From the NCBI GenBank assembly GCA_964629805.1, contig CAZVTW010000001.1:1-51786 (forward strand): DNA of 51,786 nt, written 5' to 3'. Every line of letters begins with the position of its first letter. Within the stretch, counting starts at the first letter, position 1. The notes under the pieces were generated by a model, which ran no database searches, was not told the DNA's origin, and was given only the letters and a program-made list of their open reading frames with translations. Positions 5,969-51,140 of the stretch are shown one piece after another. Both the position numbers and the translations under genes were made by a program. The DNA is from an uncultured Bacteroidales bacterium (lineage in GTDB: Bacteria; Bacteroidota; Bacteroidia; Bacteroidales; CAZVTW01).

Positions 5969-8010
5969 TTATTCATTATTCATTTTCCACATACGTATTA
6001 CAAATCCACCATTCGCCGGGAGGTTCATTACCAAAGAACTGTCACGCGCTATTTTTACTTCCTCTATTTCCACTCCGTCATGGTTATCATCTTTATAAAT
6101 ATCTCCCTTAAAATTTCCTTTACCAATAAAATCAAAATCAATGCTTACAGACCTATCGCCTGAAGCATTTATGGCAGCAACATACCAATCGTTACCTTTT
6201 CTGCGTGCCAAACAGCAAAATTTACCCGGGTATCCATCTATAAATTGAATCTCGTCCCAGGCAGCAGGGAGGTTTTTGAAAAATTCCTTTGCCGGGGATT
6301 TGCGGAATTCTTCAGGTTTGTCGGCCATACATACCCAGCCCGATTCGTATACAAAGGGCAGGGCCATTTCGTGGACATACGTCGTTTTCCGGTCTTTTGC
6401 CGAAAAACTTACCGGGGTATAATCCATTGGACCGCTAATATTTCTTGTAAAAGGAAGGGTTACATTGTGAACCGGTGTGGGCATATTGGGTTTGTAACCA
6501 AATTTGTAATATTCAGCACCGCGCACCCCCTCGTAGGTCATAATATTAGGAAAAGTGCGTTGCAAGCCTCTTGGGGTTATTGAACCGTGAAAACTGACCA
6601 TGAGACTGTATTTCGCTGCATGTGCCGTAACCTCTTCGTACCATTTCATGGCTGGTTGTTTGTCGCTGTTCACAAAATCGAGTTTTATGCCCGAAACACC
6701 CCATTTTTGGTAAATGGAAAATATATTATCTCTTTTTTCAGGTGTATCCAGGTTTCTTCGTTCGTCCCAACCAATTACTTTTATTCCTTTAGATAAAGCA
6801 TAATTTATTACTTCGGGGATATAGTCTATATCGCGCCAAAAATCAGCAGCAAGGCCACCATTGTTGCCAATTAGTCCAATGTCAAATTCCACGTAATCCC
6901 AATTCATTTCGGCAGCAAAATCAATGTACTCTTTCATCACTTTCGGGTCGTCATTGGCCAGGCTGTTTCCCCACCAGGGGAATGTGGCTATACTTCAATT
7001 GGTTAATTATTTAATTTGAAAATTTGAAAATAAATTGACAATCAGCAATTAAGGAACGATTAAAGTTAAGATTTAAACCGTTTAAAGTATATACCAGGTG
7101 CTATCCAGTCTGTGTTTTGTATTTTTGAAGGTTTGTTAAGCGAGGTGATGAAGTCAGATTCCACAATATCTGCAAGTTTATTGCCAATAATCATGCATCG
7201 CCATGGTGTTTGCATGTTTGGGTATGCAGTGATTTCCACAGACTCTTTACTCACATATACTTCCCATTCTCCTTTTGTCGGGTTTTCAATGGTTTGGTCA
7301 GGCAAATGAATGCCAAGTTTTCCGTCTCCGTTATGTATGAGTTGTGCTGCCACGTATTGGCTGTCAATGTCGGCATCGCTTATGAAAAGCCAGTTGTTGC
7401 CGGGAGTTTGTACAAGGGCAGGTATATAATAAGCCGGTTTGCTCATGGTATCGACCAACCGTTCCACATAAAAATTTTCATAATCGTTGGAGTAATTGTT
7501 AAATTCCTGTATCCAGGCAACAGAACCTTTTGGGAGGTTGAATGCACTGATTTCTCTGTTAACCTGACTTTTATCGGGGTTGTAAAGTTTATATCTAAAA
7601 GCTACTACGTTATTACTTACCTGAAAAATCAAAGCCATTTTGTTTCCCCGTGAATTCTTCAAATAAAAGGTTTTTTGATTGGCATGGTATATATGTTTCA
7701 ATCTTTTTCCGGTGGTTGTTGTAAAACTATCACGAACCACAGCTTGCGAAATAGAAATAATTTTAAGGCCTGAACTAAAATGAAAAGCTGAGTCAATTAA
7801 TTGAATACCTAATTGAGAAAAGCCCAAAACTTCTTTATTCTTTAGGTATACCTTATAAAAAGGCGTTCCGGAACTGTCAATTTTAATCCTTGCACATATT
7901 GATGAATCAGGGGAAAACATATCTGTTTTGTTAAGCACATTATTTTGTGAGCAGGAAAGCGTTGCAAAAACAGATAACAATAGAGTAACTAATTTTATCA
8001 ATTTATTCAT
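5969..8010 (-). pseudogene. GH97 glycoside hydrolase gene split into two out-of-frame ORFs by a 96-nt insertion
   Basis: ORF 7066..8010 is a lipoprotein signal (LSVFATLSC) plus a GH97 N-terminal-type domain, ending ...NTDWIAPGIY followed by 6 unrelated codons and a stop. ORF 5969..6940 is the catalytic part (YIDFAAEMNW, GIKLDFVNSDKQ, VSFHG, YEGVRGAEY). Its frame is open upstream as far as TGA at 6995..6997. Confidence 0.8.
6989..7094 (-). mobile_element. 96-nt AT-rich insertion (6994..7089) bounded by 5-bp direct repeats TATAC (6989..6993 and 7090..7094)
   Basis: Removing 6989..7089 (101 nt) joins the two GH97 ORFs in frame, giving ...DWIAPGI-ATFPWWGNS.... The insert contains the palindrome TTTAAAC-G-GTTTAAA (minus strand) and a tandem AATTTGAA. 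No terminal inverted repeats were seen. Confidence 0.6.
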
Positions 8011-13934: not shown

Positions 13935-16352
13935 CTACTTGTCCCTTAAGGCTTCCACCGGGTTTTTGCCGGCAATTTTCCAGGAGCCGAGAGCCACTGT
14001 AACATATATGATGGTTGCGATAAAGATAGCTGTTATGAGATAAATGATAAAAGATAGCTCAATTTTATAGGCAAAATTTTTCAGCCAGTTGTTCATGATA
14101 ATTACAGAAACAGGTACAGCCACCATTATGGCAGCGAGAAACAGGGTAAAATAATCTTTCACCATCATAAAAATAACCTGACTTGTTTTAGCGCCGTTTA
14201 CTTTTCTTACACCTACCTCCTTTGAGCGTGTATTGATCATAAACATGGCCAGTGAGAACAACCCCAGGCTGATGATGATAATGGTGAAGGCCGAAAAGAA
14301 ACCGAAGTAGCGGCTAAAACGCATTTCTTCTTTATATTGCTCATTAAAAAAGTCGTCTAAGAAGAAGTATTCAAATGGCTCCAATGGAAAAAATCTTTTC
14401 CATATTTTTTCTGTGGTTTGTATGGTTGCCTGGATGTTTTCGGTTGAAACCGGAATGGTGTAATAATCAATTCTTCTCCATCGCCAGCACTTTTTCCAGT
14501 ACAAATAAACGGTTGGTTGTACCTCGTTTTGGAGCGATAGATGATGGATGTTTTCAACAATGCCCACTATCGTTTTTATACCCCCACCACCTAACACAAT
14601 TTGCTTGCCGAGGGCATCTTCAGTAGAAGCGAATCCAAGTGTTTTTGCCGCTTTCTCGTTTAATATACATGTTTCCTGTTCATTAAAGGCATCGAGGTTA
14701 AAGTCGCGGCCACTAAGGATATTGACATCATAAAGCGCGAAAAAGTTTTTGTCAATGTCGTTCGTCGGAATATCAATCTTTTTTTCTTCAGAAAATGATT
14801 TCCCCCTGCAAAATGACAAAACGGTTGAGAGTTCTTCGCCGGGCACTGAACCTGAAACGGTAATTTTTTCCAGGTTCAATGCCCTTTCAAGCTCTTGCCG
14901 AAAAGTTTTCTGCAATTCAGCATCTTCAAATATTTCATCAGCGTTGGGTCCCATCAATACAAGTTTTTGCTCAATATTCATCCCTAAATCCTGGCTTTGC
15001 ATGTAATGCACTTGTTTGGTTACAACAAGGTAGCCTGCAATAAGAATAACAGATACTACCAATTGCAAACCAATCAGCAATTTCCGTGTAAGGTGTTTGC
15101 TTGTACCACCTTGGGTTAATGAATTATTCGTAAAAAGTTTACTGCCCGAACGGTAAACAAAAAACGGGTACACCGAGCATATAGTAATCCCTGACAAGAC
15201 AACAGGACCAATCAATACAAGGTCTTGGGGCGCATTAAAGATTAAGAAATCGATACCGCTTATGTTTTTTTTAATATAAGGGTAAGATATGTAAATAAAA
15301 AGTAGAGCCAATATAAATGCAAAAAAATGTAGGAAACCTATTTGTAGAAAAAACCGGGTAAAAATTCCGCGCATTTTAGCCCCGATTGAAATAAATTTTA
15401 TGATATCGGTTGATTGTTCGGCAAATTTAGCCGCGAACAGGTTGGCACTGTTCAGCCAGGCTAAAATCAACAGGGAATAAGCAATAATAACCAAAATATT
15501 GATGTTGCCTCCCACACCTCTGGAACCATAACCCGAATCAACTTCAGACTGGAGGTGGATATCCACTACTGGTTCCAACAACGCAACATCCTGATACTTT
15601 TTATCGTTGTGAGAAGGAACGTTCTTTTCAATCAGTTGATTGATTTTTTTTGCCAGCGCTGCAGTATTTGTTTTTCCTGGTACTTTTATATACGTATGCA
15701 CACCAATACACCCCCACCATTTGTTCATACCATTCCATTTTTCATCAATTATGGCCCAGGAAGCAAGAATTTCTGGTTTTAGATGCGAATTTTCAGGTAT
15801 ATCTTTGAACACCCCGGTAATGGTTAATAAATGGTTACCACTTAAAAGCAAGGTTTCACCTACCGGGTTTTTATCGCCAAATATCCTCTCGGCAATACTT
15901 TTCGAAATAATTATAGTATGAGACTTTTCCAGGGCAGTTTCAGGATCGCCATAAATTAAATGAAACTTAAAAACCTCTATTATCTCAGGGTCAATATAAT
16001 CAAATTTTAACCTGAAACTTCTCTTGTCTTGCGTGGTTAACACCCCCTGCTCGGGATGGCTGCGGGCAGAAAATTCAATTTCGGGGATTTCATCATCCAA
16101 AGCCAATTTTAGCGGGCAATATGATAAAGCATTTTTATCAATGCTGCCATCTTCATTCGTACGTTCAATAATAATGCGGTAAATATTTTCAGCATCATCA
16201 TGAAACCGATCATAACTTTTTTCGAACTTTACATATTGACTAATCAATATAAAAGCCGTAAATGCAAGTGTAAGGCCGATGAGGTTGATAACAGCAGCGC
16301 TTTTATCCCGCCAGAGAGAGCGAAGGGCGATTAAAAAATTATATTTATTCAT
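13935..16352 (-). CDS. FtsX/MacB-type ABC transporter permease (no ATPase partner in the window)
   Basis: 805-aa ORF with the N-terminus LRSLWRDKSAAVINLIGLTLAF. It has two FtsX-like 4-TM bundles separated by large extracytoplasmic domains. Confidence 0.85.
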   Translation of the reverse strand: MNKYNFLIALRSLWRDKSAAVINLIGLTLAFTAFILISQYVKFEKSYDRFHDDAENIYRIIIERTNEDGSIDKNALSYCPLKLALDDEIPEIEFSARSHPEQGVLTTQDKRSFRLKFDYIDPEIIEVFKFHLIYGDPETALEKSHTIIISKSIAERIFGDKNPVGETLLLSGNHLLTITGVFKDIPENSHLKPEILASWAIIDEKWNGMNKWWGCIGVHTYIKVPGKTNTAALAKKINQLIEKNVPSHNDKKYQDVALLEPVVDIHLQSEVDSGYGSRGVGGNINILVIIAYSLLILAWLNSANLFAAKFAEQSTDIIKFISIGAKMRGIFTRFFLQIGFLHFFAFILALLFIYISYPYIKKNISGIDFLIFNAPQDLVLIGPVVLSGITICSVYPFFVYRSGSKLFTNNSLTQGGTSKHLTRKLLIGLQLVVSVILIAGYLVVTKQVHYMQSQDLGMNIEQKLVLMGPNADEIFEDAELQKTFRQELERALNLEKITVSGSVPGEELSTVLSFCRGKSFSEEKKIDIPTNDIDKNFFALYDVNILSGRDFNLDAFNEQETCILNEKAAKTLGFASTEDALGKQIVLGGGGIKTIVGIVENIHHLSLQNEVQPTVYLYWKKCWRWRRIDYYTIPVSTENIQATIQTTEKIWKRFFPLEPFEYFFLDDFFNEQYKEEMRFSRYFGFFSAFTIIIISLGLFSLAMFMINTRSKEVGVRKVNGAKTSQVIFMMVKDYFTLFLAAIMVAVPVSVIIMNNWLKNFAYKIELSFIIYLITAIFIATIIYVTVALGSWKIAGKNPVEALRDK

Positions 16353-16736
16353 TTTAATAAGGTCTTTTTTATTTGTTATTTTTCAAGATGTATGCCATAC
16401 ATCGTAACATCCTGTTTTACAGCATGAGGCGAGTTGTATTTCCATACTTAGGTGTCAAAATTTTTAACATATCTGTAAAAAAATTTAACACATTGTGGTT
16501 TGCAATACATTGTAAATATTCGGGATAGTGATTACCACAAAGCGGCATTTTTTTGTTAAAACTAAAAAAAAATGTTTAGGTTTCATTCCTAAAATCAATT
16601 ATTATTGTCAGAAAAAATTTCACAATGCTTTCAGGTAAAGGTACACCTGCCGGTTTTGTGATCAAACCTACATCCTAAAAAAAGTTCATCTTTTCCGGTT
16701 AGTCCGGGCTTGGGTATGATAAATTCTCTATTATAG

Positions 16737-16951
16737 ATGAGTCCACTCCTGAGAAACGCAATAACTCCTGCGATTTTTTTTTGACAAGTTGACGAAACAG
16801 AATTCTGTTTCCTTGGCAGTACTATCTTTGTCAAAATCGAGTCATTTGTCTCGACTGAGTTAACGTCATTTGACACTGAAAGTGTCCAGCTGACTTTATC
16901 TGAATTTCTGTCATATACCTGATAATCAATGCCATTTTTTTTGACATTCAT
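16737..16951 (+). repeat. MITE-like repeat, copy A (degenerate right end)
   Basis: It starts ATGAGTCCACTCCTGAGAAAC. The first ~125 nt align with copy B, including GACGAAACAGAAT and TTTGTCTCGACT. It ends ...TTTTTTTTGACATTCAT. Confidence 0.6.
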
Positions 16952-17339
16952 ATGGCACAAACTATAGTTGAGACAAAAAGCCTTGATTTTGTCGTTTTCT
17001 TTGGGGTACGATTTAATTCATTTGTAATCGCACGACAACCAAGGTTACTTCTCCTTTTTCCTCCTTAATATATTCTTTATTCACCACCTCTTCACCCCGT
17101 TTGTCAATAACAGCATTCAGGGTTTCATTGGCTTCCGGGAATCGTCCTTTAGCATCTGTTTCAGTAAACCATGCGTTCACTCACCAAAAAACCACTTTAT
17201 TGCCTGACATTTCACTATTTGCCATGACATACTATGTTAGGGGGGCAGGCTCACATGTTGTTGTTTGATTGAAAATTAAAATAAGCGATATCCTTTGTTT
17301 CCCGGGTCAACCGCAGCAGGACGTTGAGAGATTTCTAAA

Positions 17340-18335
17340 TCACAAGGAGTCACGTATGATCAGTCCGGATGGATTTATGATCTTTTTTTCTTTATTTTCA
17401 TTTATCAGTTTCACTAAATTCAATCCCATGCTGTAAAAATCTGTTGATATTGTCGCTAATCCATTCAGTATTATTTCTTTTAATGGCGATTCATTATATG
17501 ATATGATGCCTGTATCTTTTCCGGGCTGCAGTTTTTGTGCATTCAGTTTTTTAACAATGTAGATAAGGTCAGCCGTGTCAACCGTGATAAAAAGCCTGTT
17601 TTTTGTTACCTCGCAGTTATCGGCGTTCTGAATAATATGCCCTTTTATATAGAAATCATCACAAAATCGCTTAAATCCTTTTTTTAGACCTTCAATGATA
17701 TAGCTGGATGTCCTGAATACAAAAAATGTTTCTGTATACTGCCTTATTCGATCCAATCCGTCAACAAGAGCAGTATATATATCGTTCTCAAAATCCTGGT
17801 ATACCCCCGGATATGTGTTCATGATTTCAGTGGGTGCATGATCAATGATATAGACTTTCTTGTGTTTAAGAAGGGCAATATCTTTATCCGCGTTTTTATA
17901 AAGCGGCAGAACCAGGATGAAGTACGGATAGTTATCTTTATTATCTGTGATGAATCTTCTGAATACACTGGGGTTGTGATGATGAAAAACCACATCAAAG
18001 GTTGCGAGGTTCATTAATTGTCCGGTTATGGCACTCAGGAGGGTTTGTTTATAATCGCTTAACTCATCAAATATTACTAATATCCGGCGTTTGACTTCGG
18101 TGGCCGAACTCACAACATAGAATCCTTTACCAGGACTGGAAGCAATCAATCCTCTATTTTTTAGCTCATTATAAGCCTTAATGACCGTATCCCGCGAAAA
18201 TGCATGTTTTTTGACCATCTCATTTACCGACGGGAGTTTGTCTCCTGATACCAGTTCGGCTTTCTGAACCGATTCTTCTATGGCAGAAACAATTTGTTTA
18301 TATTTTGCCAGCCCCTGCCTGATTATGATTTTCAT
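17340..18335 (-). CDS. GntR-family transcriptional regulator with LacI/periplasmic-binding-type sugar-sensing domain
   Basis: 331-aa ORF. It has a winged HTH (LPSVNEMVKKHAFSRDTVIKAYNELKNRGLIASSPGKGFYV) followed by a ~250-aa alpha/beta ligand-binding domain. Confidence 0.8.
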   Translation of the reverse strand: MKIIIRQGLAKYKQIVSAIEESVQKAELVSGDKLPSVNEMVKKHAFSRDTVIKAYNELKNRGLIASSPGKGFYVVSSATEVKRRILVIFDELSDYKQTLLSAITGQLMNLATFDVVFHHHNPSVFRRFITDNKDNYPYFILVLPLYKNADKDIALLKHKKVYIIDHAPTEIMNTYPGVYQDFENDIYTALVDGLDRIRQYTETFFVFRTSSYIIEGLKKGFKRFCDDFYIKGHIIQNADNCEVTKNRLFITVDTADLIYIVKKLNAQKLQPGKDTGIISYNESPLKEIILNGLATISTDFYSMGLNLVKLINENKEKKIINPSGLIIRDSL

Positions 18336-18344
18336 CTGTTTAAA

Positions 18345-18398
18345 TTTTTGTCTGCGAAAATTTTTTTGTCCGCGAAATACACGAATTACGCGAATTAA
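18345..18398. promoter_or_regulatory. Tandem direct repeats in the GntR/MFS divergent region (candidate operator)
   Basis: TTTTTGTCTGCGAAAA (18345..18360) and TTTTTGTCCGCGAAAT (18363..18378) match at 14/16 positions with an 18-nt period. They are followed by CGAATTA-CG-CGAATTA (18382..18397). The repeats lie 10-60 nt upstream of the GntR ATG. Confidence 0.4.
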
Positions 18399-18411
18399 TT
18401 AACTATCAATT

Positions 18412-18571
18412 AACTTTTAAAAACCCTCTTGTTCTGAAATCGGCGATACGAGGATACCGCACCAAAGGTCAATATGCCACAACTTGTCTCTCGACTAAGT
18501 TGATAGAAGGCTTTCTGGCCTGGCAGGTGAAGCTTATATACCGGAAAGCCTGCCGCAAAAGGTTTTTTCAT
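18412..18571. repeat. MITE-like repeat, degenerate copy G
   Basis: It contains CTTGTCTCTCGACTAAGT (core), GAAGCTTATATACCGGAAAGCCTGCC (compare copy F AAGGCTTATCTTACCGGA and AAGCCTGCC) and AAAAGGTTTTTTCAT (truncated right terminus). The boundaries are approximate. Confidence 0.45.
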
Positions 18572-20053: not shown

Positions 20054-20063
20054 TTTTACATCA

Positions 20064-20200
20064 ATGAGTCAGCTCCTAAAAGCCTCTTTGTTGCCAAAAG
20101 CTTCGTTATTTTGGCCTGGTTCAGTCGGGATAAAACCTCATCCCGACTGAGTCTCTCTGATAAGTCCGTACAAAAATAGTGTTTTCAGGAGTTGACTCAT
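20064..20200. repeat. MITE-like repeat, copy D (137 nt, best-preserved inverted termini)
   Basis: The left end is ATGAGTCAGCTCCTAAAA and the reverse complement of the right end is ATGAGTCAACTCCTGAAA (16/18 identical). There is an internal hairpin CAGTCGGGAT-N8-ATCCCGACTG. TCAA flanks both sides if the element is taken as TGAGTC...GACTCA. Confidence 0.8.
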
Positions 20201-20218
20201 CAATAAAATAATGATAAT

Positions 20219-23516: not shown

Positions 23517-23694
23517 ATGAGTCCACTCCTAAGAAACTCTGTAACTCCCTCGGGGATTATTTGGACAAATTGACGAAACAGAATATTGTTTACTTGGCTG
23601 TCCATTTGTCACCAATCTCTACGTTATTTGTCTCGACTCAGTCGAGACAAATTCCTCAATTTTGACAAAATAGTACTTTTAGAAGTTGATTCAT
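23517..23694 (+). repeat. MITE-like repeat, copy B (178 nt)
   Basis: The left terminus is ATGAGTCCACTCCTAAGAA and the reverse complement of the right terminus is ATGAATCAACTTCTAAAAG. The central perfect palindrome is TTTGTCTCGAC-TCA-GTCGAGACAAA (about 23627..23651). Confidence 0.8.
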
Positions 23695-36607: not shown

Positions 36608-36677
36608 ATGAGTCCACTCCGGTGAGTCCATTTGTCGCCAAATTCTTCGTTATAACATTTCTTAGAAGTTGGCTCAT
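36608..36677 (+). repeat. MITE-like repeat, mini copy C (70 nt)
   Basis: ATGAGTCCACTCC...CATTTGTCGCCAAATTCTTCGTTAT...TTCTTAGAAGTTGGCTCAT. The termini match at 10/13 positions. The interior matches the CATTTGTCACCAA..ACGTTAT segment of copy B. The right terminus contains the TGA stop of CDS 36674..39214. Confidence 0.7.
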
Positions 36678-39214
36678 TTTATTTTTAAAAATTTAGCGAT
36701 TCTTTGATGCTTCCGGCTCATTGTCTTAACCAGATATAAACCATTTCGAAGCCCCGAAACATCAATTCTTTCACCCGGCATTATCATCCTGATGTTGAAT
36801 TCAGAAACAACTTCTCCATGTACATTTACAATTTGAATCAACTCTGTGTCTTTATTATCTATTGAGATAAATTCAATTGCCGGATTTGGGAACACTTTTA
36901 GTCGGGGGATGGATTTTTCGCTTGTTTCAAAAACAGAACTGGCAGTATCTGTTTTGTTTTCATTAATTTTTACAGTTGCATATCTTATGATCTTATTGTC
37001 ATTACTGACTTTAATTATTGCTTCTTCAACAGGTTCTGAAGCTACAAATTTACCCGCTTCAAAAAACTCACCGCCTGCACTAACTTCCCAGTCAAGATCA
37101 GGCATTGTTTCCAATTTATTAAAAATATTTTCATACACGTCTACATCAAAAATGAGTGTGTCGCCAACTTCAATCTCAGCACTTTCAGGACTGATTTCAA
37201 TTCGGGTTATTGTGTTCGCGGGACCGGCAATCCAGGGGTCTGAACCAAATTCATAAGAGCCAATATCCGGTGTACCAATTACAACAGAATCATTGTAATC
37301 ATGACTGACTCCTTTGTCAATAAGTATTTTTGCACTTTCCTTTAAACGAAAATCATGATTATCAGGATCCATGTAAAGATCATATAGTTCTTTTTTTTCA
37401 GAAACAAATTCACAACTGTCAATTTCAGCCAGGTTAAGTTTTCCTCCCCAGCCGGCAGAAACAATATTATTCTTTAAATAAATTTGATCACCATTATCAT
37501 TTCTAAATGCACTTCCAAACCCCGGGCGGGATAAGTTTGAATTCAATGCAAGATTATTGTAGACTAAATGTTTTCCTATCACCTCATGGTATCTGTTTAA
37601 AACAATCGGCCCATCTACATTACTGATAATATTATGATCAATGATTGTGTTACCGCCAAAATCGAAATAAATACCATTGGCTAATTTGTTTGTACCATTT
37701 AAAATAATATTGTGATCAACCCTTATGTTGGTCCAGTCACGTCCGGCGCTGGCATTCAGTGCTCCGCCATCATGGGATCGTAGCATAAAACCATCCACAA
37801 TATTATGATGAATCCTTGCTTTACCAGGGTGTTTTTCTGGTTCAGTGTTATAAATGCTATTGATACTTATAGCCATATGCGGTGTATTATAAAAATAGTT
37901 GTAGGAAATTTCCGGGTCCCTGAGCCTGCATTTCCTGCCAGAATTAATCACACCAGCTTCGGAAACCAGGTAATTAATATGATAAAATGAGTTCCCAATG
38001 ATTTTCATATTATCTCCAATCGGAGAAATTGCAGAAGCTGCACTGTAATCAAATTCACAATTACTAACAGTATGACCAACACCGCTTAAAACCAGACCAG
38101 AACGCTGAGCAAAAATATTCGCGGAAAGATTCTCGTTCTTATTTGTTGCATGGTAGATATATTTGAATTTGATGCTGTCAATTAAAAAATTATAACAATC
38201 CTCAGCAGCAGATTCCCTGTTTTCAAACCCCAATTCAGTGCAAATGCTTGCAGCAAATATTTCAAATCCTTTTATAGTGATGCCATGGTAATTTTGTCCG
38301 GTTTCGGCAGGTGCAAAAGCCCATACACGCTTCTTAACCTCTATTAGATTAGTCTCATCAATAGTTTCTGCCGGAGCTTCTCCGTCTGGCAATCTTACAA
38401 ACAAAGTATCGCCGTTTTTCCACCATTCGCCCCTTGACAGAATTTGTTGAGGGCCTCCGGTTTCGTATACTCCATCGGCCGAAGGATTACAAAGGTAAAA
38501 CTCGGTACCCGGGCCAAGCCCAAAATTTCCATTATTCACCTTTAAATCAGTCCATCCGCTTTCGTCAACTACCTTAATTTTGTTTTGCGATTGCGAAATA
38601 AATGTAACATCTCCTGTCCAGCCTGAACCATCATGTCCGTTACGGGCAATATTAAGCCATACTTTTGAATCTGTCCAACGTGCTGCCGGTTCATCAAAAT
38701 CACTTTCTATAAGATAAACCCCGGTTGTACCAATATCTTCTACTTTGTCTGCTTTTGCGACAACCGGATTGGCAACAAAATCATCACTGGTTTCATCTGG
38801 CCAGCGGGCTACATGCAGCATTTTGCCGTCAACAAACACCTGATTGTCCTGGTTGTTTTCGGTTACATCCCAGGGTACAGTAGCTTTATACACTTCATTC
38901 CCCACTTCCTGCCAGTTGAAAACCGGTTCTGAACCACTAATGACCACATTGTCGTCTTCATAAGGCTCAAATGTTATTCCGTTGGCCGAAAATTCAACTT
39001 TTTCACGGTAGGTACCTTCATGAACAAGAATTTTATCACCTTCTGATGCAAAATTTACTGCTTCACGGATAGTTTTGAAAGGGTGCTCTGTGGAGCCGTC
39101 ACGATGCTCACTTTCGCTGTGTTTATCAACATGAATAGTTTGGGCATGAAGACAAACCGTGGTATTTACAAAAATATAAATGATAACTGCTTTTAGTATT
39201 CTAAAATTCATCAT
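36674..39214 (-). CDS. Secreted right-handed beta-helix protein with Big_2-like domain and T9SS C-terminal sorting domain
   Basis: 846-aa ORF with a signal peptide. It has HPFKTIREAVNFASEGDKILVHEGTYRE (beta-helix N-cap) and coil repeats (HHNIVDG, DHNIILNG, DHNIISN). An Ig-like segment (ITRIEISPESAEIEVGDTLIF) precedes the C-terminus LKVFPNPAIEFISI...GLYLVKT (T9SS type-A pattern). Confidence 0.8.
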   Translation of the reverse strand: MMNFRILKAVIIYIFVNTTVCLHAQTIHVDKHSESEHRDGSTEHPFKTIREAVNFASEGDKILVHEGTYREKVEFSANGITFEPYEDDNVVISGSEPVFNWQEVGNEVYKATVPWDVTENNQDNQVFVDGKMLHVARWPDETSDDFVANPVVAKADKVEDIGTTGVYLIESDFDEPAARWTDSKVWLNIARNGHDGSGWTGDVTFISQSQNKIKVVDESGWTDLKVNNGNFGLGPGTEFYLCNPSADGVYETGGPQQILSRGEWWKNGDTLFVRLPDGEAPAETIDETNLIEVKKRVWAFAPAETGQNYHGITIKGFEIFAASICTELGFENRESAAEDCYNFLIDSIKFKYIYHATNKNENLSANIFAQRSGLVLSGVGHTVSNCEFDYSAASAISPIGDNMKIIGNSFYHINYLVSEAGVINSGRKCRLRDPEISYNYFYNTPHMAISINSIYNTEPEKHPGKARIHHNIVDGFMLRSHDGGALNASAGRDWTNIRVDHNIILNGTNKLANGIYFDFGGNTIIDHNIISNVDGPIVLNRYHEVIGKHLVYNNLALNSNLSRPGFGSAFRNDNGDQIYLKNNIVSAGWGGKLNLAEIDSCEFVSEKKELYDLYMDPDNHDFRLKESAKILIDKGVSHDYNDSVVIGTPDIGSYEFGSDPWIAGPANTITRIEISPESAEIEVGDTLIFDVDVYENIFNKLETMPDLDWEVSAGGEFFEAGKFVASEPVEEAIIKVSNDNKIIRYATVKINENKTDTASSVFETSEKSIPRLKVFPNPAIEFISIDNKDTELIQIVNVHGEVVSEFNIRMIMPGERIDVSGLRNGLYLVKTMSRKHQRIAKFLKIK

Positions 39215-44320: not shown

Positions 44321-44473
44321 ATGAGTCTGCTCCGAAAAATCCTGTTTTTGTCTCTGAGCAGAGCTTAAAGCCTGCCCTGTATATAAAAATGTCAGGTGCA
44401 TTCATCATGCAACCTGAGTCTTAACAAATAACCAAGCAGGCACAAGCAAAAAGGTTTTCAGGAGCAGACTCAT
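44321..44473. repeat. MITE-like repeat, copy E (153 nt)
   Basis: The left end ATGAGTCTGCTCC-GAAAA and the reverse complement of the right end ATGAGTCTGCTCCTGAAAA share their first 13 nt exactly. The interior has TTTGTCTCTGAGCAGAG and AAGCCTGCCC, shared with copies F and G. It sits between susD and the first cargo gene. Confidence 0.8.
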
Positions 44474-49000: not shown

Positions 49001-49290
49001 TTCAGGTTAATAACAGGGCGGGAATCAACAGGAACTTCCTGTTTCCTATAACCTACACTGGTGAAAACAAGGATGGCATCCTTGCTACTGACGGTAATAG
49101 TATAATTACCGTCAAGATCCGTAATTGTGCCGTCGCCGGTTCCCTTTTCTATGATGTTGACCCCGGGGATGGGCCAGTCGTTTTTAGATTCCGAAACATT
49201 CCCGGTTACTGTGAACCCGTCCTGGCTATAACCCGTCATATGTTGTAAAAAAAACGCTGCAAAGAATAGTAATGTTAGATGTATTTTCAT
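46081..49290 (-). CDS. SusC/RagA-family TonB-dependent outer-membrane transporter
   Basis: 1069-aa ORF. It has a CarboxypepD_reg-like N-domain (GNVSESKNDWPIPGVNIIEKGT), a plug (VVVIGYGTTKKSDLTGA) and a large beta-barrel. There is no STN domain, which fits HTCS rather than ECF/anti-sigma control. Confidence 0.92.
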   Translation of the reverse strand: MKIHLTLLFFAAFFLQHMTGYSQDGFTVTGNVSESKNDWPIPGVNIIEKGTGDGTITDLDGNYTITVSSKDAILVFTSVGYRKQEVPVDSRPVINLKLDEEVQDIQEVVVIGYGTTKKSDLTGALASVSNEDFKDIAALGVDDALKGRAAGVEVINNTGSPGSSMTVRIRGMATLNSGTMPLYVVDGIIMGDQSFGKKDGNIPDNKSGISFLDPNDIESIEVLKDASAAAIYGARGANGVVLITTKKGKAGKARVDINIYKGVQTQARELDMMSAGRYRDFSNELQGILGRDTFAGFEPGTALSETNWQEEVFTPADKEKYKFTISGGSEKNTYLFSASYFKQEGLVKSSGYDKFSIRFNGEHKLSNKIKFGEQFIVTRSNRKRVMEGAGLGNVVSGALLADPSIEPYVADITDPATLSYLNDTTQIWTDLYRTSNVRNPVATIDLDIYNYESYHYFGNAFVDFQLFPFLNFRSIVGIDITNGDMEQFNPRYQINPVDRRDQNEFYKRHERWINWDVENILTYQKTFGSHDLTVMGAVTAQKETFVDMRLHFKPFPYDEEFMRYPNVPTIDGVSPPESSPMAYSLLSQLGRVIYNYDGKIHLTASIRRDGSSKFGPENRWGVFPSFSAGYKLSEEDFIKNIGFVDFLKVRAGWGKLGNQSIPPYQYSTSLYSQGNNYGFGPNREVLVGLLPNGVSNQYIKWESTKQTNVGLDFGLWGSKLSGSVDVFDKLTSDLLMQMPVPKFTGVHNLERVGGAQPSAFANIADLNNKGLEMKLDYKSSIGPVRFNLGGNISVVKNEVVDLPGENTILPSNNDSKFGYMSYTKEGESVAGFYGYITEGIFQDYDEIAAHADQGTEDPYTDDRSLEPNPLKYTAPGDFKYRDINGDGEINDDDKTFIGSPLPDFTYGFNLNLDYKGFDMFMSLSGVQGIDVMNKMKYYLYNDILYVNRSADFNYWTEDNRDASYPRIGKNKSKNLDRFSDFYIEDASYLRIRNLTIGYSFGDNILNRIKMKRIRLYATIENLYTFTKYTGLEPEVGSSVGWNPHPLDFGVDAATYPHPRTYILGLNISL

Positions 49291-49690
49291 AATATGTTAA
49301 AATTAGAAATTAAAATTTCGTGATTCCACTATACAAAGAAAAACAGAGCTTAGGGAATTTATACATGCTATTTCTTATTATGTTAGCAGTTATCCTTTTT
49401 ATAATTATATGTGCTATCTTTTGAACTTATTATGCTGCTGTTTAATCATTTTTATTCACCAAAGCCCCCTTTTTAATATTAAAACTCATATTTTGGCTTT
49501 ACAAGAACACGAGAATAAGATATGAAAAAGTGTTAAATGGATCTTTTTGTAAAAGACGCTGTTTTGCAACTATTTTATCATGCCCGGAATAAGACGCTGA
49601 ACTATCCGCAGAAAAGATATGAACTCCTTATCGAAAAATCCCCTTCTGAATCAGCTATCACCAGTAACAGTAAAAATGAAAACAATTTCA

Positions 49691-49933
49691 CAGGGTTTAC
49701 TCCGTGAAATAACTTCTTTGGAGATTATTTTGAATAATTGTCGAAACAGAGCACTGTTTTCTTAGCAGTAAAATTTTCGTCTCGACTCAGTCGAGATCAA
49801 GCCTGCCCCGTGCAGAGAATTGCGGGGGGCCTTAAGGCTTATCTTACCGGAGTTAACTGTCTGTTAATGACAATTGAAAAATTCTTACCAACGCAGAGTT
49901 TGGCGATAAATGTACATCTATAAGCGAACTCAT
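49691..49933. repeat. MITE-like repeat, degenerate copy F (clear core 49774..49851)
   Basis: The core is TTTTCGTCTCGACTCAGTCGAGATCAAGCCTGCCCCGTGCAGAGAATTGCGGGGGGCCTTAAGGCTTATCTTACCGGAG. The putative degenerate termini are CAGGGTTTACTCCGTGAAA and ..AAGCGAACTCAT. The boundaries are uncertain. Confidence 0.45.
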
Positions 49934-50293
49934 AGATGTTCCACAAAAAAATAACCCAAATAACGCATGATTACTCCAAATTAAGCAGAGTACATTCAGG
50001 AAATTCTTAGTAGAATTGTACACCTTACTTGATTTTAACCTTATTATTTACCGCAAACATATTGATAAAATAAATTATTATCTTCAACCCATTAATATGC
50101 AATAAACAATAGAAATTTAGTAATTTAGAATATTTTAAATGCTTTTTTGTATTTAATATTTTAAATAGCCATTATTTCTAACATAACTTTTGGGACAGGG
50201 TACTAGTAGACTCATTTATATCAAACCAGGACCAATTTTTTCATAAAAAAATAAAACTTACACGTAATAATTATATATTACAATTTTTTTATT

Positions 50294-51140
50294 ATGAAAA
50301 AGTTTATCACATTCTTATTACTGTCACTACTCACACTATGCAAAGCTGTATCCCAGACAGACACTGAATTTTGGTTTGCGGCACCGGAAGTATCATCCGC
50401 ACATGGCGATGAGCCAATCTATTTAAGGATTTCAACGACAAGCCGGCCTGCTGAGGTTTCCGTTTCAATGCCTGCAAATTCAGCTTTTTCCAATATCACA
50501 AAAAAAGTAACAGCTAATTCAACCGTATCAATTGCTTTGACAAAATTCAAAGATGAAATTGAGGGCAGTCCTGCTAATAAAGTATTGAACAAAGGGCTTA
50601 ATATAAAAAGCACATCAGAAATATCATGCTATTATAAAGTGGCAAATGTCTGGAATCCGGCGATTTACCCCTTAAAAGGGAATGTTTGTATTTGTATCAG
50701 CGTCAGATTTACTGCCGGTTGATGCTCTGCAAATGAATTCACACCCCGGATTCGACCGCTTAAGAAGGTATTATGTTTTAACCGAATATAAAATACTAAA
50801 ACAGGAGCAAAATTCCCTGGCAACACTGGTTGGTGGTGATTTTGACTTTGAGCGGGATAATCAGTTCCATATAAGTTTGTTATATAATTATTTATCAACA
50901 ACAGAGAACAAATATGGCCTGGGCCTGTCATACAGGCACACAAATTATAAAAATATACACACCGCTAACAGCGCCATCGTACTTTTACATTTGCAATTCC
51001 AAAATCTGTTACTTGTCTGTCAATACCATATTCACCTTACCAGAGTCCGGCAATATAATTCAGGGACGCATGAAATAAATGTTGGTTTCCGTATTTGTAA
51101 AAAGGCTCATAGCCCCGTTCCGTGCCGGGTTTATTACTAA
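50294..51140 (+). pseudogene. Composite remnant: N-terminal ~125 aa of a large adhesin-like protein joined out of frame to the C-terminal ~150 aa of a PorP/SprF-like protein
   Basis: ORF 50294..50722 has a signal peptide plus TEFWFAAPEVSSAHGDEPIYLRIST...NKGLNIKSTSEISCYY, the N-terminal pattern of big Bacteroidota surface proteins. ORF 50682..51140 in another frame ends ...GLGLSYRHTNY...NSGTHEINVGFRI, a PorP/SprF-type C-terminus. Confidence 0.45.

Follow-up and report, generated by a model that had tools for sequence, protein, structure and literature searches.

MITEs in the genome of an uncultured Bacteroidales bacterium share their termini with an IS1182-like insertion sequence

Results

Repeats in the window

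The stretch of DNA analyzed here (the window; 51,786 nucleotides) is contig C1 of a 7.03-Mb metagenome-assembled genome of a microbial-mat Bacteroidota, which comprises 1121 contigs with 37% G+C and comes from a bin with 89% completeness and 6% contamination. An initial annotation of the window had described seven copies (A to G) of a MITE-like intergenic repeat; copies A to F proved to be real and to lie where they had been placed, while G is not a member of the family.

Copy D (20064..20200, plus strand) is a complete 137-bp element with its core at 20066-20198 (GAGTC...GACTC); the agreement of its termini at 16 of 18 positions had already been seen on reading the sequence. It is flanked by a 6-bp duplication, ATCAAT, at 20060-20065 and 20199-20204, and separates an MFS transporter gene from the next gene, a junction that would measure 26 nt without the element; four further assemblies of the same strain show an identical arrangement around it. 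Copy E (44321..44473, minus strand) is also complete (153 bp), and the first 13 nt of its termini are identical, as likewise read from the sequence. It is placed between susD and the following gene of a PUL operon, is approximately 70% identical to a 152-bp subfamily, and has no recognisable duplication in its flanks (TATTAT vs. ATAAGT). Copy B (23517..23694, plus strand), complete at 178 bp with 3 mismatches in the right terminus, is located in the divergent region between a fucosidase gene and a hybrid two-component regulator gene and is 88% identical over 178 nt to an element on another contig (C10:33421-33598). Copy C (36608..36677, plus strand) represents a 70-bp minimal form, in which the left subterminal module is joined to the right terminus, and matches positions 1-58 of the model of the 173-bp form described below. 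Within 36671-36681, the TGA stop codon of the minus-strand gene at 36674-39214 consists of the last two bases of copy C and the first flanking base; as this stop codon is built at the right junction of the element, the insertion sets the present C-terminus of that protein.

The two remaining copies are decayed to different degrees. Copy A (16737..17010, end approximate; minus strand) belongs to a subfamily of approximately 270 bp; its left terminus is intact (ATGAGTCCACTCC), whereas the right one has decayed. Its start had been correctly assigned in the initial annotation (16737..16951), but the copy runs to at least 16994, as the segment 16737-16994 aligns to positions 1-243 of a complete 271-bp element (C112:4457-4727). 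Copy F (49691..49933, minus strand), upstream of susC, is a composite of 243 bp in which both termini have decayed; it bears the conserved core TCATTAACAGACAGTTAACTCC at 49849-49870, and its segment 49933-49760 corresponds to positions 1-163 of the 173-bp-form model (E = 4e-24, nhmmer). Two unusually long intergenic regions of approximately 1 kb within the PUL (16352-17340 and 49290-50294) each contain one decayed composite MITE (A and F, respectively) together with further sequence.

Two other repeat families were encountered in the window. The candidate G (18412..18571, no strand assigned) was rejected as a family member since it has no terminal repeat and since 18344-18470 is a different repeat; its likeness to the MITE family is limited to the hairpin TTGTCTCTCGACTAAGTTGA, which resembles one interior module. 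The repeat at 18344-18470 represents a third family with more than 25 loci, which in the copies examined adjoins a gene start and consists of two TTTTGTCCGCGAAA boxes, followed by CGAATTAATTAACTTTCAGTTAA and by one to three tandem units of approximately 45 nt (GTCCCGAAATCTTCGATTTCGAGGATACCCGACCAAAGGTCGGTAT), each with two small hairpins. This family may represent a shared regulatory region or another element. In addition, the insertion of approximately 100 nt that splits a GH97 gene (6985-7095) is itself a repeat, with five more copies at 91-98% identity over approximately 100 nt (C393, C1057, C156, C919 and C476) and shorter pieces on five further contigs; this repeat constitutes a second MITE-like family, which is younger and bears no relation to the GAGTC family.

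Abundance and placement in the genome

The motif ATGAGTCNNCTCC occurs exactly 166 times in the 7.03-Mb assembly, as compared to approximately 1.8 occurrences expected from base composition. Pairing of inverted termini genome-wide yielded 82 complete elements, which range from 64 to 424 bp in length and peak sharply at 173 bp, and a profile of the 173-bp form gave 235 genome matches (nhmmer), including 81 that are matched end to end. With all complete elements used as BLAST queries, sequence of the family was found at approximately 275 loci, spread over more than 200 contigs and amounting to 33 kb, or 0.48% of the assembly. The genome-wide count that the initial annotation had suggested thus gave a result clearly opposite to the one it had named as fatal to a repeat family, i.e., failure to find further copies elsewhere.

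The 82 complete elements are short (below the limit of approximately 500 bp for MITEs) and non-coding, and no conserved open reading frame was found among the element copies. Only 4 of the approximately 275 loci lie inside open frames of at least 200 amino acids, which make up 80% of the genome. Insertions are located at a median distance of 43 nt from genes at 3' ends as compared to 155 nt at 5' ends. The sites are unrelated to each other; even near-identical pairs of copies (up to 98.9% identity) have unrelated flanks. As pairs with 98-99% identity in unrelated flanks occur in a family whose 173-bp copies show a mean pairwise identity of 83%, the sequences suggest that activity of the family has been long-standing and continued until fairly recently. 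Being small and non-coding, with inverted repeats and target duplications (see below) at approximately 275 unrelated and almost always intergenic sites, the repeats bear out their initial description as MITE-like.

Three family members of 300-424 bp (C690:1473-1771, C39:5769-6104 and C829:1368-1791) contain an unrelated insert of approximately 130 bp (ACCGACTGGTTATCATGCC...GGTAT) after the left subterminal module. This insert is probably a nested element of another family.

Termini and target-site duplication

The ends of the elements are inverted repeats of approximately 20 bp, i.e., GAGTC(C/T)ACTCC(T/G)AAAAGT ... ACTTTT(A/C)GGAGT(G/A)GACTC, and the helix that they form (positions 1-20/155-174) is paired in 89% of cells across 18 copies. 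Logos of the flanks read AT-NN-[ATGAGTC ... GACTCAT]-NN-AT. The 6-mer before GAGTC is the same as the 6-mer after GACTC in 37 of the 82 elements, with the consensus ATNNAT, and the inner NN is equal on both sides in 47 of the 82 elements (approximately 5 expected). This identity across the flanks indicates that the true ends are GAGTC...GACTC and that the family has a target-site duplication of fixed length (6 bp, mostly ATNNAT). The AT that the initial annotation had included in the terminus therefore belongs to the duplication. The candidate duplication TCAA reported at copy D is real and constitutes the inner part of ATCAAT, but it is not unique to D, as had been claimed, given the 37 exact cases among 82; the 6-bp duplication together with the GAGTC...GACTC ends also argues against the view that the transposition mechanism is unclear.

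Two other models of target use were considered and rejected. A 2-bp duplication with AT inside the inverted repeat does not fit the whole duplication of non-palindromic 6-mers, i.e., ATAGCT in this genome, ATATCT in another genome (G287) and AAGGGT at a full insertion sequence. Targeting of hairpins or palindromes as in IS1272 was rejected on the basis of 36 reconstructed targets, in which bases outside the duplication were not complementary more often than expected. None of 36 exact duplications had a self-complementary dinucleotide at the NN of ATNNAT; relative to element orientation, this dinucleotide was GA more often than TC (9 vs. 2-3). A possible correlation between the two ends at terminus positions 14-16 was dropped as weak (same triplet in 34 elements vs. 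26 expected).

No empty site was found: the four other assemblies that contain a window locus represent the same strain with the same insertions, as seen in an exact-protein look-up, the related genomes compared all come from other families, and neither a metagenome search for orthologous loci with the neighboring protein nor a second look-up gave any hit.

An insertion sequence with the same termini

The initial annotation had noted that no transposase is present in the window and had proposed a search for an autonomous element with the same termini. The window indeed encodes nothing homologous to the partner transposase, but such an element was found elsewhere in the assembly, on contig C917 (2013 bp). 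This contig harbors a 1858-bp element (positions 93-1950) with matching inverted repeats, namely TTGAGTCCCCTCCTAAAAG at one end and ATGAGTCCACTCCGAAAAGTC, read as reverse complement, at the other; of 21 positions in the latter, 20 agree with the MITE consensus. A single uninterrupted open reading frame of 546 amino acids lies within the element, and the protein matches the Pfam families DUF772 (39.7 bits) and DDE_Tnp_1 (25.5 bits), both above the gathering scores. The best NCBIfam model for this transposase is IS1182 (NF033551; E = 4e-32, model positions 29-487 of 488), with a score of 111.6 bits that is below the cut-off of 270 bits for that model; other models, including IS5 and ISNCY, score lower (54.1 bits for ISNCY). 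The nearest annotated relatives, located on plasmids and in some cases labelled IS1182 family, are at most 30% identical to it, and its closest named relatives are labelled Bacteroidales. As the score is below the curated cut-off, and as a 6-bp duplication and no hairpin targeting (vs. IS1272) are observed, we therefore call the partner element IS1182-like and not an IS1182 family member.

Only one copy of the transposase gene is present in the whole assembly, and the flanks of the C917 element (AATATT and ATAGTT) show no duplication. Because this single copy is located on a 2-kb contig and the bin has a contamination of 6%, it cannot be assigned to this organism with certainty.

The same termini were also observed in other genomes and in metagenomes. 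More than 2900 homologues of the C917 transposase were found, with lengths of 558-563 amino acids and mostly on contigs of approximately 2 kb, as is expected for repeats. Full elements with the same ends are present at five other loci (L011, in a "Chitinophaga sp." MAG, and L028, L031, L048 and L085), and full elements outside this genome have exact 6-bp duplications, i.e., AAAGTT, AAAATT, AATATT, AAGATT and AAGGGT. Full insertion sequences elsewhere mostly duplicate AANNTT, whereas the MITEs in this genome duplicate ATNNAT. The terminus GAGTCNACTCCNAAAAG was found on at least 120 metagenome contigs, many of which carry MITEs of 130-190 bp with interiors that have nothing in common with the local ones. 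Among the loci fetched, 38 of 83 bounded elements have exact 6-bp duplications; 6 of these 83 entries represent window copies D and B again, from four loci of the same strain. Related insertion sequences and MITEs that combine these termini with 6-bp duplications also occur in other families of the order. A shared terminus combined with unrelated interiors is what is expected if the transposase recognises the ends only, and the superfamily is defined by its terminus and not by its interior.

Interiors of the elements

At least ten subfamilies with common termini are present in this genome, with interiors built from a limited set of parts, and the shared interior modules listed in the initial annotation are real, as they were recovered by repeat finding. 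These parts comprise a left subterminal module (GTCCATTTGTYGCCAAACTCTTCGTTAT), a right subterminal module (GATTTTGACRAAAATCTTAC) and several hairpin modules, i.e., GTCTCGAC-N3-GTCGAGAC and variants, CCGCCAGCTGGCGG, TTAAC-N5-GTTAA, GCCTGCCCTCG-N12-CGGGGGC and GAAACAG-N4-CTGTTTC. The possibility that the hairpin modules represent an independent high-copy repeat was rejected, as there are only 18-34 copies, many of them within bounded elements.

The 173-bp consensus, folded as single-stranded DNA, has a z-score of -9.8. Across 18 copies, a 16-bp internal stem (columns 45-60/89-104) shows compensatory double changes in 7 of its 16 pairs; no shuffle out of 500 reached the overall covariation score, which also lies above all slid controls, even though related sequences may yield such covariation without any structure. 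A lineage of approximately 142 bp, homologous to the local 146-bp and 173-bp forms, was found on one metagenome contig and in genomes from no fewer than four other families of the order. Whereas the termini of this lineage have diverged (e.g., GAGTCGAGTCTAAAAAG and GAGCACCTCTAAAAACTCG), a 31-nt core, AATCCTCATTAAC-N5-GTTAACTCCGGTT, is nearly invariant across it; this conservation partly reflects ascertainment, since most foreign copies were found by a search with the core and the G021 matches alone came from an unbiased BLAST search with whole elements. The core is carried by 20 of the 82 complete local elements, with most local subfamilies having none, and none of the nine full insertion sequences checked contains it.

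The compensatory changes in the stem and the occurrence of the core in several families hint at a constraint on the interior that would be unlike pure junk DNA. We regard it as rather doubtful that the interior of the lineage of approximately 142-173 bp (i.e., the core within the covarying 16-bp stem) is under selection. If it were, the core would act as a sequence-specific site, such as a transposition enhancer to which the transposase or a host protein binds, or a site appropriated by the host, and the interchangeable hairpin modules would be functional cassettes instead of filler.

Discussion

Probable movement in trans by an IS1182-like transposase

Overall, it is highly probable that the repeats are MITEs mobilised in trans by the transposase of the IS1182-like element. 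Having no transposase of their own, they would be moved by the DDE transposase of the insertion sequence of approximately 1.86 kb, which would bind both ends and make 6-bp staggered cuts in an A+T-rich target (A-W-N-N-W-T, in this genome mostly ATNNAT); repair of the staggered cuts would then duplicate the 6 bp on both sides of the element. The reaction may follow cut-and-paste or copy-paste chemistry. The interiors would be dispensable for recognition and would have diversified into mosaics of hairpin-forming modules, and copies would build up between genes, chiefly just past gene 3' ends, because insertions are tolerated there. Observed directly were, in this genome, the number of copies, their inverted repeats and 6-bp duplications, their bias toward intergenic positions and the matching ends of the partner, and, in other genomes, full insertion sequences and MITEs that have these ends and duplications; the C917 transposase would be, in our interpretation, the likely mover of the MITEs.

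It is quite unlikely that the MITEs were moved by a different transposase, with the C917 element representing a contaminant or a relative of a lost driver and the family possibly being extinct in this genome. Such an origin would be consistent with the lone transposase copy on a 2013-bp contig in a bin with 6% contamination, with the unduplicated flanks of that copy, with the average identity of only 83% among the 173-bp copies and with the difference between the targets of the MITEs (ATNNAT) and those of most full insertion sequences (AANNTT). A lone copy is, however, what a short-read bin would normally give, since the copies of an insertion sequence are merged there into one short contig, and the copy pairs with 98-99% identity imply fairly recent movement. 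Moreover, the termini of the C917 element and the MITEs agree at 20 of 21 positions, and the same pairing of terminus and transposase clade recurs in independent genomes and metagenomes.

Possible functions of the elements

Analyses of the neighborhood and of the canonical copy gave no evidence of a host function. The orientation of the elements relative to co-directional neighboring genes is unbiased (12 vs. 13), Rfam yielded no match at the gathering score in the window and a best E value of 0.14 for the canonical copy, and the canonical copy has no terminator-like site; a role as promoter or terminator was rejected on the basis of the unbiased orientation and the missing terminator-like site. 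These results also bear on the proposal that the repeats, or a subset with the core and the stem, are functional host elements spread by transposition, such as a protein-binding site, an element for RNA stability or processing, or a small RNA. We consider this proposal very improbable. The covariation of the stem (7 of 16 compensatory pairs, 0 of 500 shuffles), the folding z-score of -9.8, the near-invariance of the core across at least four other families with differing termini and the location of copies D and E within PUL operons would all be compatible with a host function, but just 20 of 82 complete elements have the core, its conservation is in part a matter of ascertainment and kinship alone can beat column shuffles. 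The most parsimonious interpretation is selfish DNA whose presence between genes is tolerated, and the elements would be expected to have only incidental effects on neighboring genes; given their positions, copies D, E and C may possibly exert such effects.

A third proposal, i.e., that the repeats are REP-like palindromes spread by a RAYT (Y1/HUH) transposase or immobile conserved regulatory DNA, would account for interiors rich in short palindromes (e.g., TTTGTCTCGAC-TCA-GTCGAGACAAA) and for the exclusively intergenic location of the copies, but can be dismissed with near certainty, as REP elements are 20-40-bp palindromes tied to a Y1 transposase and without the terminal inverted repeats (here approximately 20 bp) and target duplications (here 6 bp) of this family, as the palindromes are few (18 for the strict core) and mostly inside bounded elements, and as the family occupies approximately 275 unrelated sites and has ends that match a DDE insertion sequence.

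Implications

In annotation of this genome, the MITE family accounts for approximately 275 intergenic repeats and for much of the fragmentation of the assembly, as well as for oddities of the PUL, i.e., an element in a 26-nt operon junction, an element after susD and a stop codon supplied by an insertion. The analysis also documents in Bacteroidota a widespread IS1182-like clade with the terminus GAGTCCACTCCNAAAAG and a regular 6-bp AWNNWT duplication, accompanied by a large retinue of MITEs with unrelated interiors. While these data change no concept, they can be used for repeat libraries and for the study of the origin of MITE interiors.

Comparison with known systems

The family, although well documented, is selfish DNA of an ordinary kind, and this classification is well supported; only the modular hairpin interiors and the conserved core are mildly unusual. 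MITEs of the same kind include the Correia elements of Neisseria and, in Streptococcus pneumoniae, the RUP and BOX elements, and like other bacterial MITEs the elements described here are small, non-coding, present in high copy number and intergenic, with inverted repeats, target duplications, extended hairpins and a transposase that would act in trans. Their modular interior is reminiscent of BOX elements with their boxA-boxB-boxC arrangement. Conversely, the terminus GAGTCCACTCCNAAAAG, the IS1182-like partner and the presence of at least ten interior subfamilies under one terminus in one genome set the family apart from the known bacterial MITEs named here, and Correia elements duplicate TA, whereas the present family duplicates 6 bp (AWNNWT). 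MITEs have already been documented in Bacteroidota (PMC4596501, PMC5771137, bioRxiv 10.1101/2024.01.18.576219), including those of Porphyromonas gingivalis, whose similarity to a DDE insertion sequence is confined to the inverted repeats (PMC4596501, PMC5771137).

The partner element behaves as a DDE insertion sequence of the IS1182/IS5 type. It resembles the IS1182 family in that it has a single-ORF transposase with DUF772 and DDE_Tnp_1, a length of approximately 1.86 kb and short inverted repeats. It differs from annotated IS1182 transposases in its identity to them (at most 30%) and in its score (111.6 bits vs. the 270-bit cut-off). IS1272 of Staphylococcus, a member of the IS1182 family, inserts into hairpins and makes no duplication (PMC4923244, PMC5678879); unlike IS1272, the clade described here has no palindrome around its targets and makes a regular 6-bp duplication.
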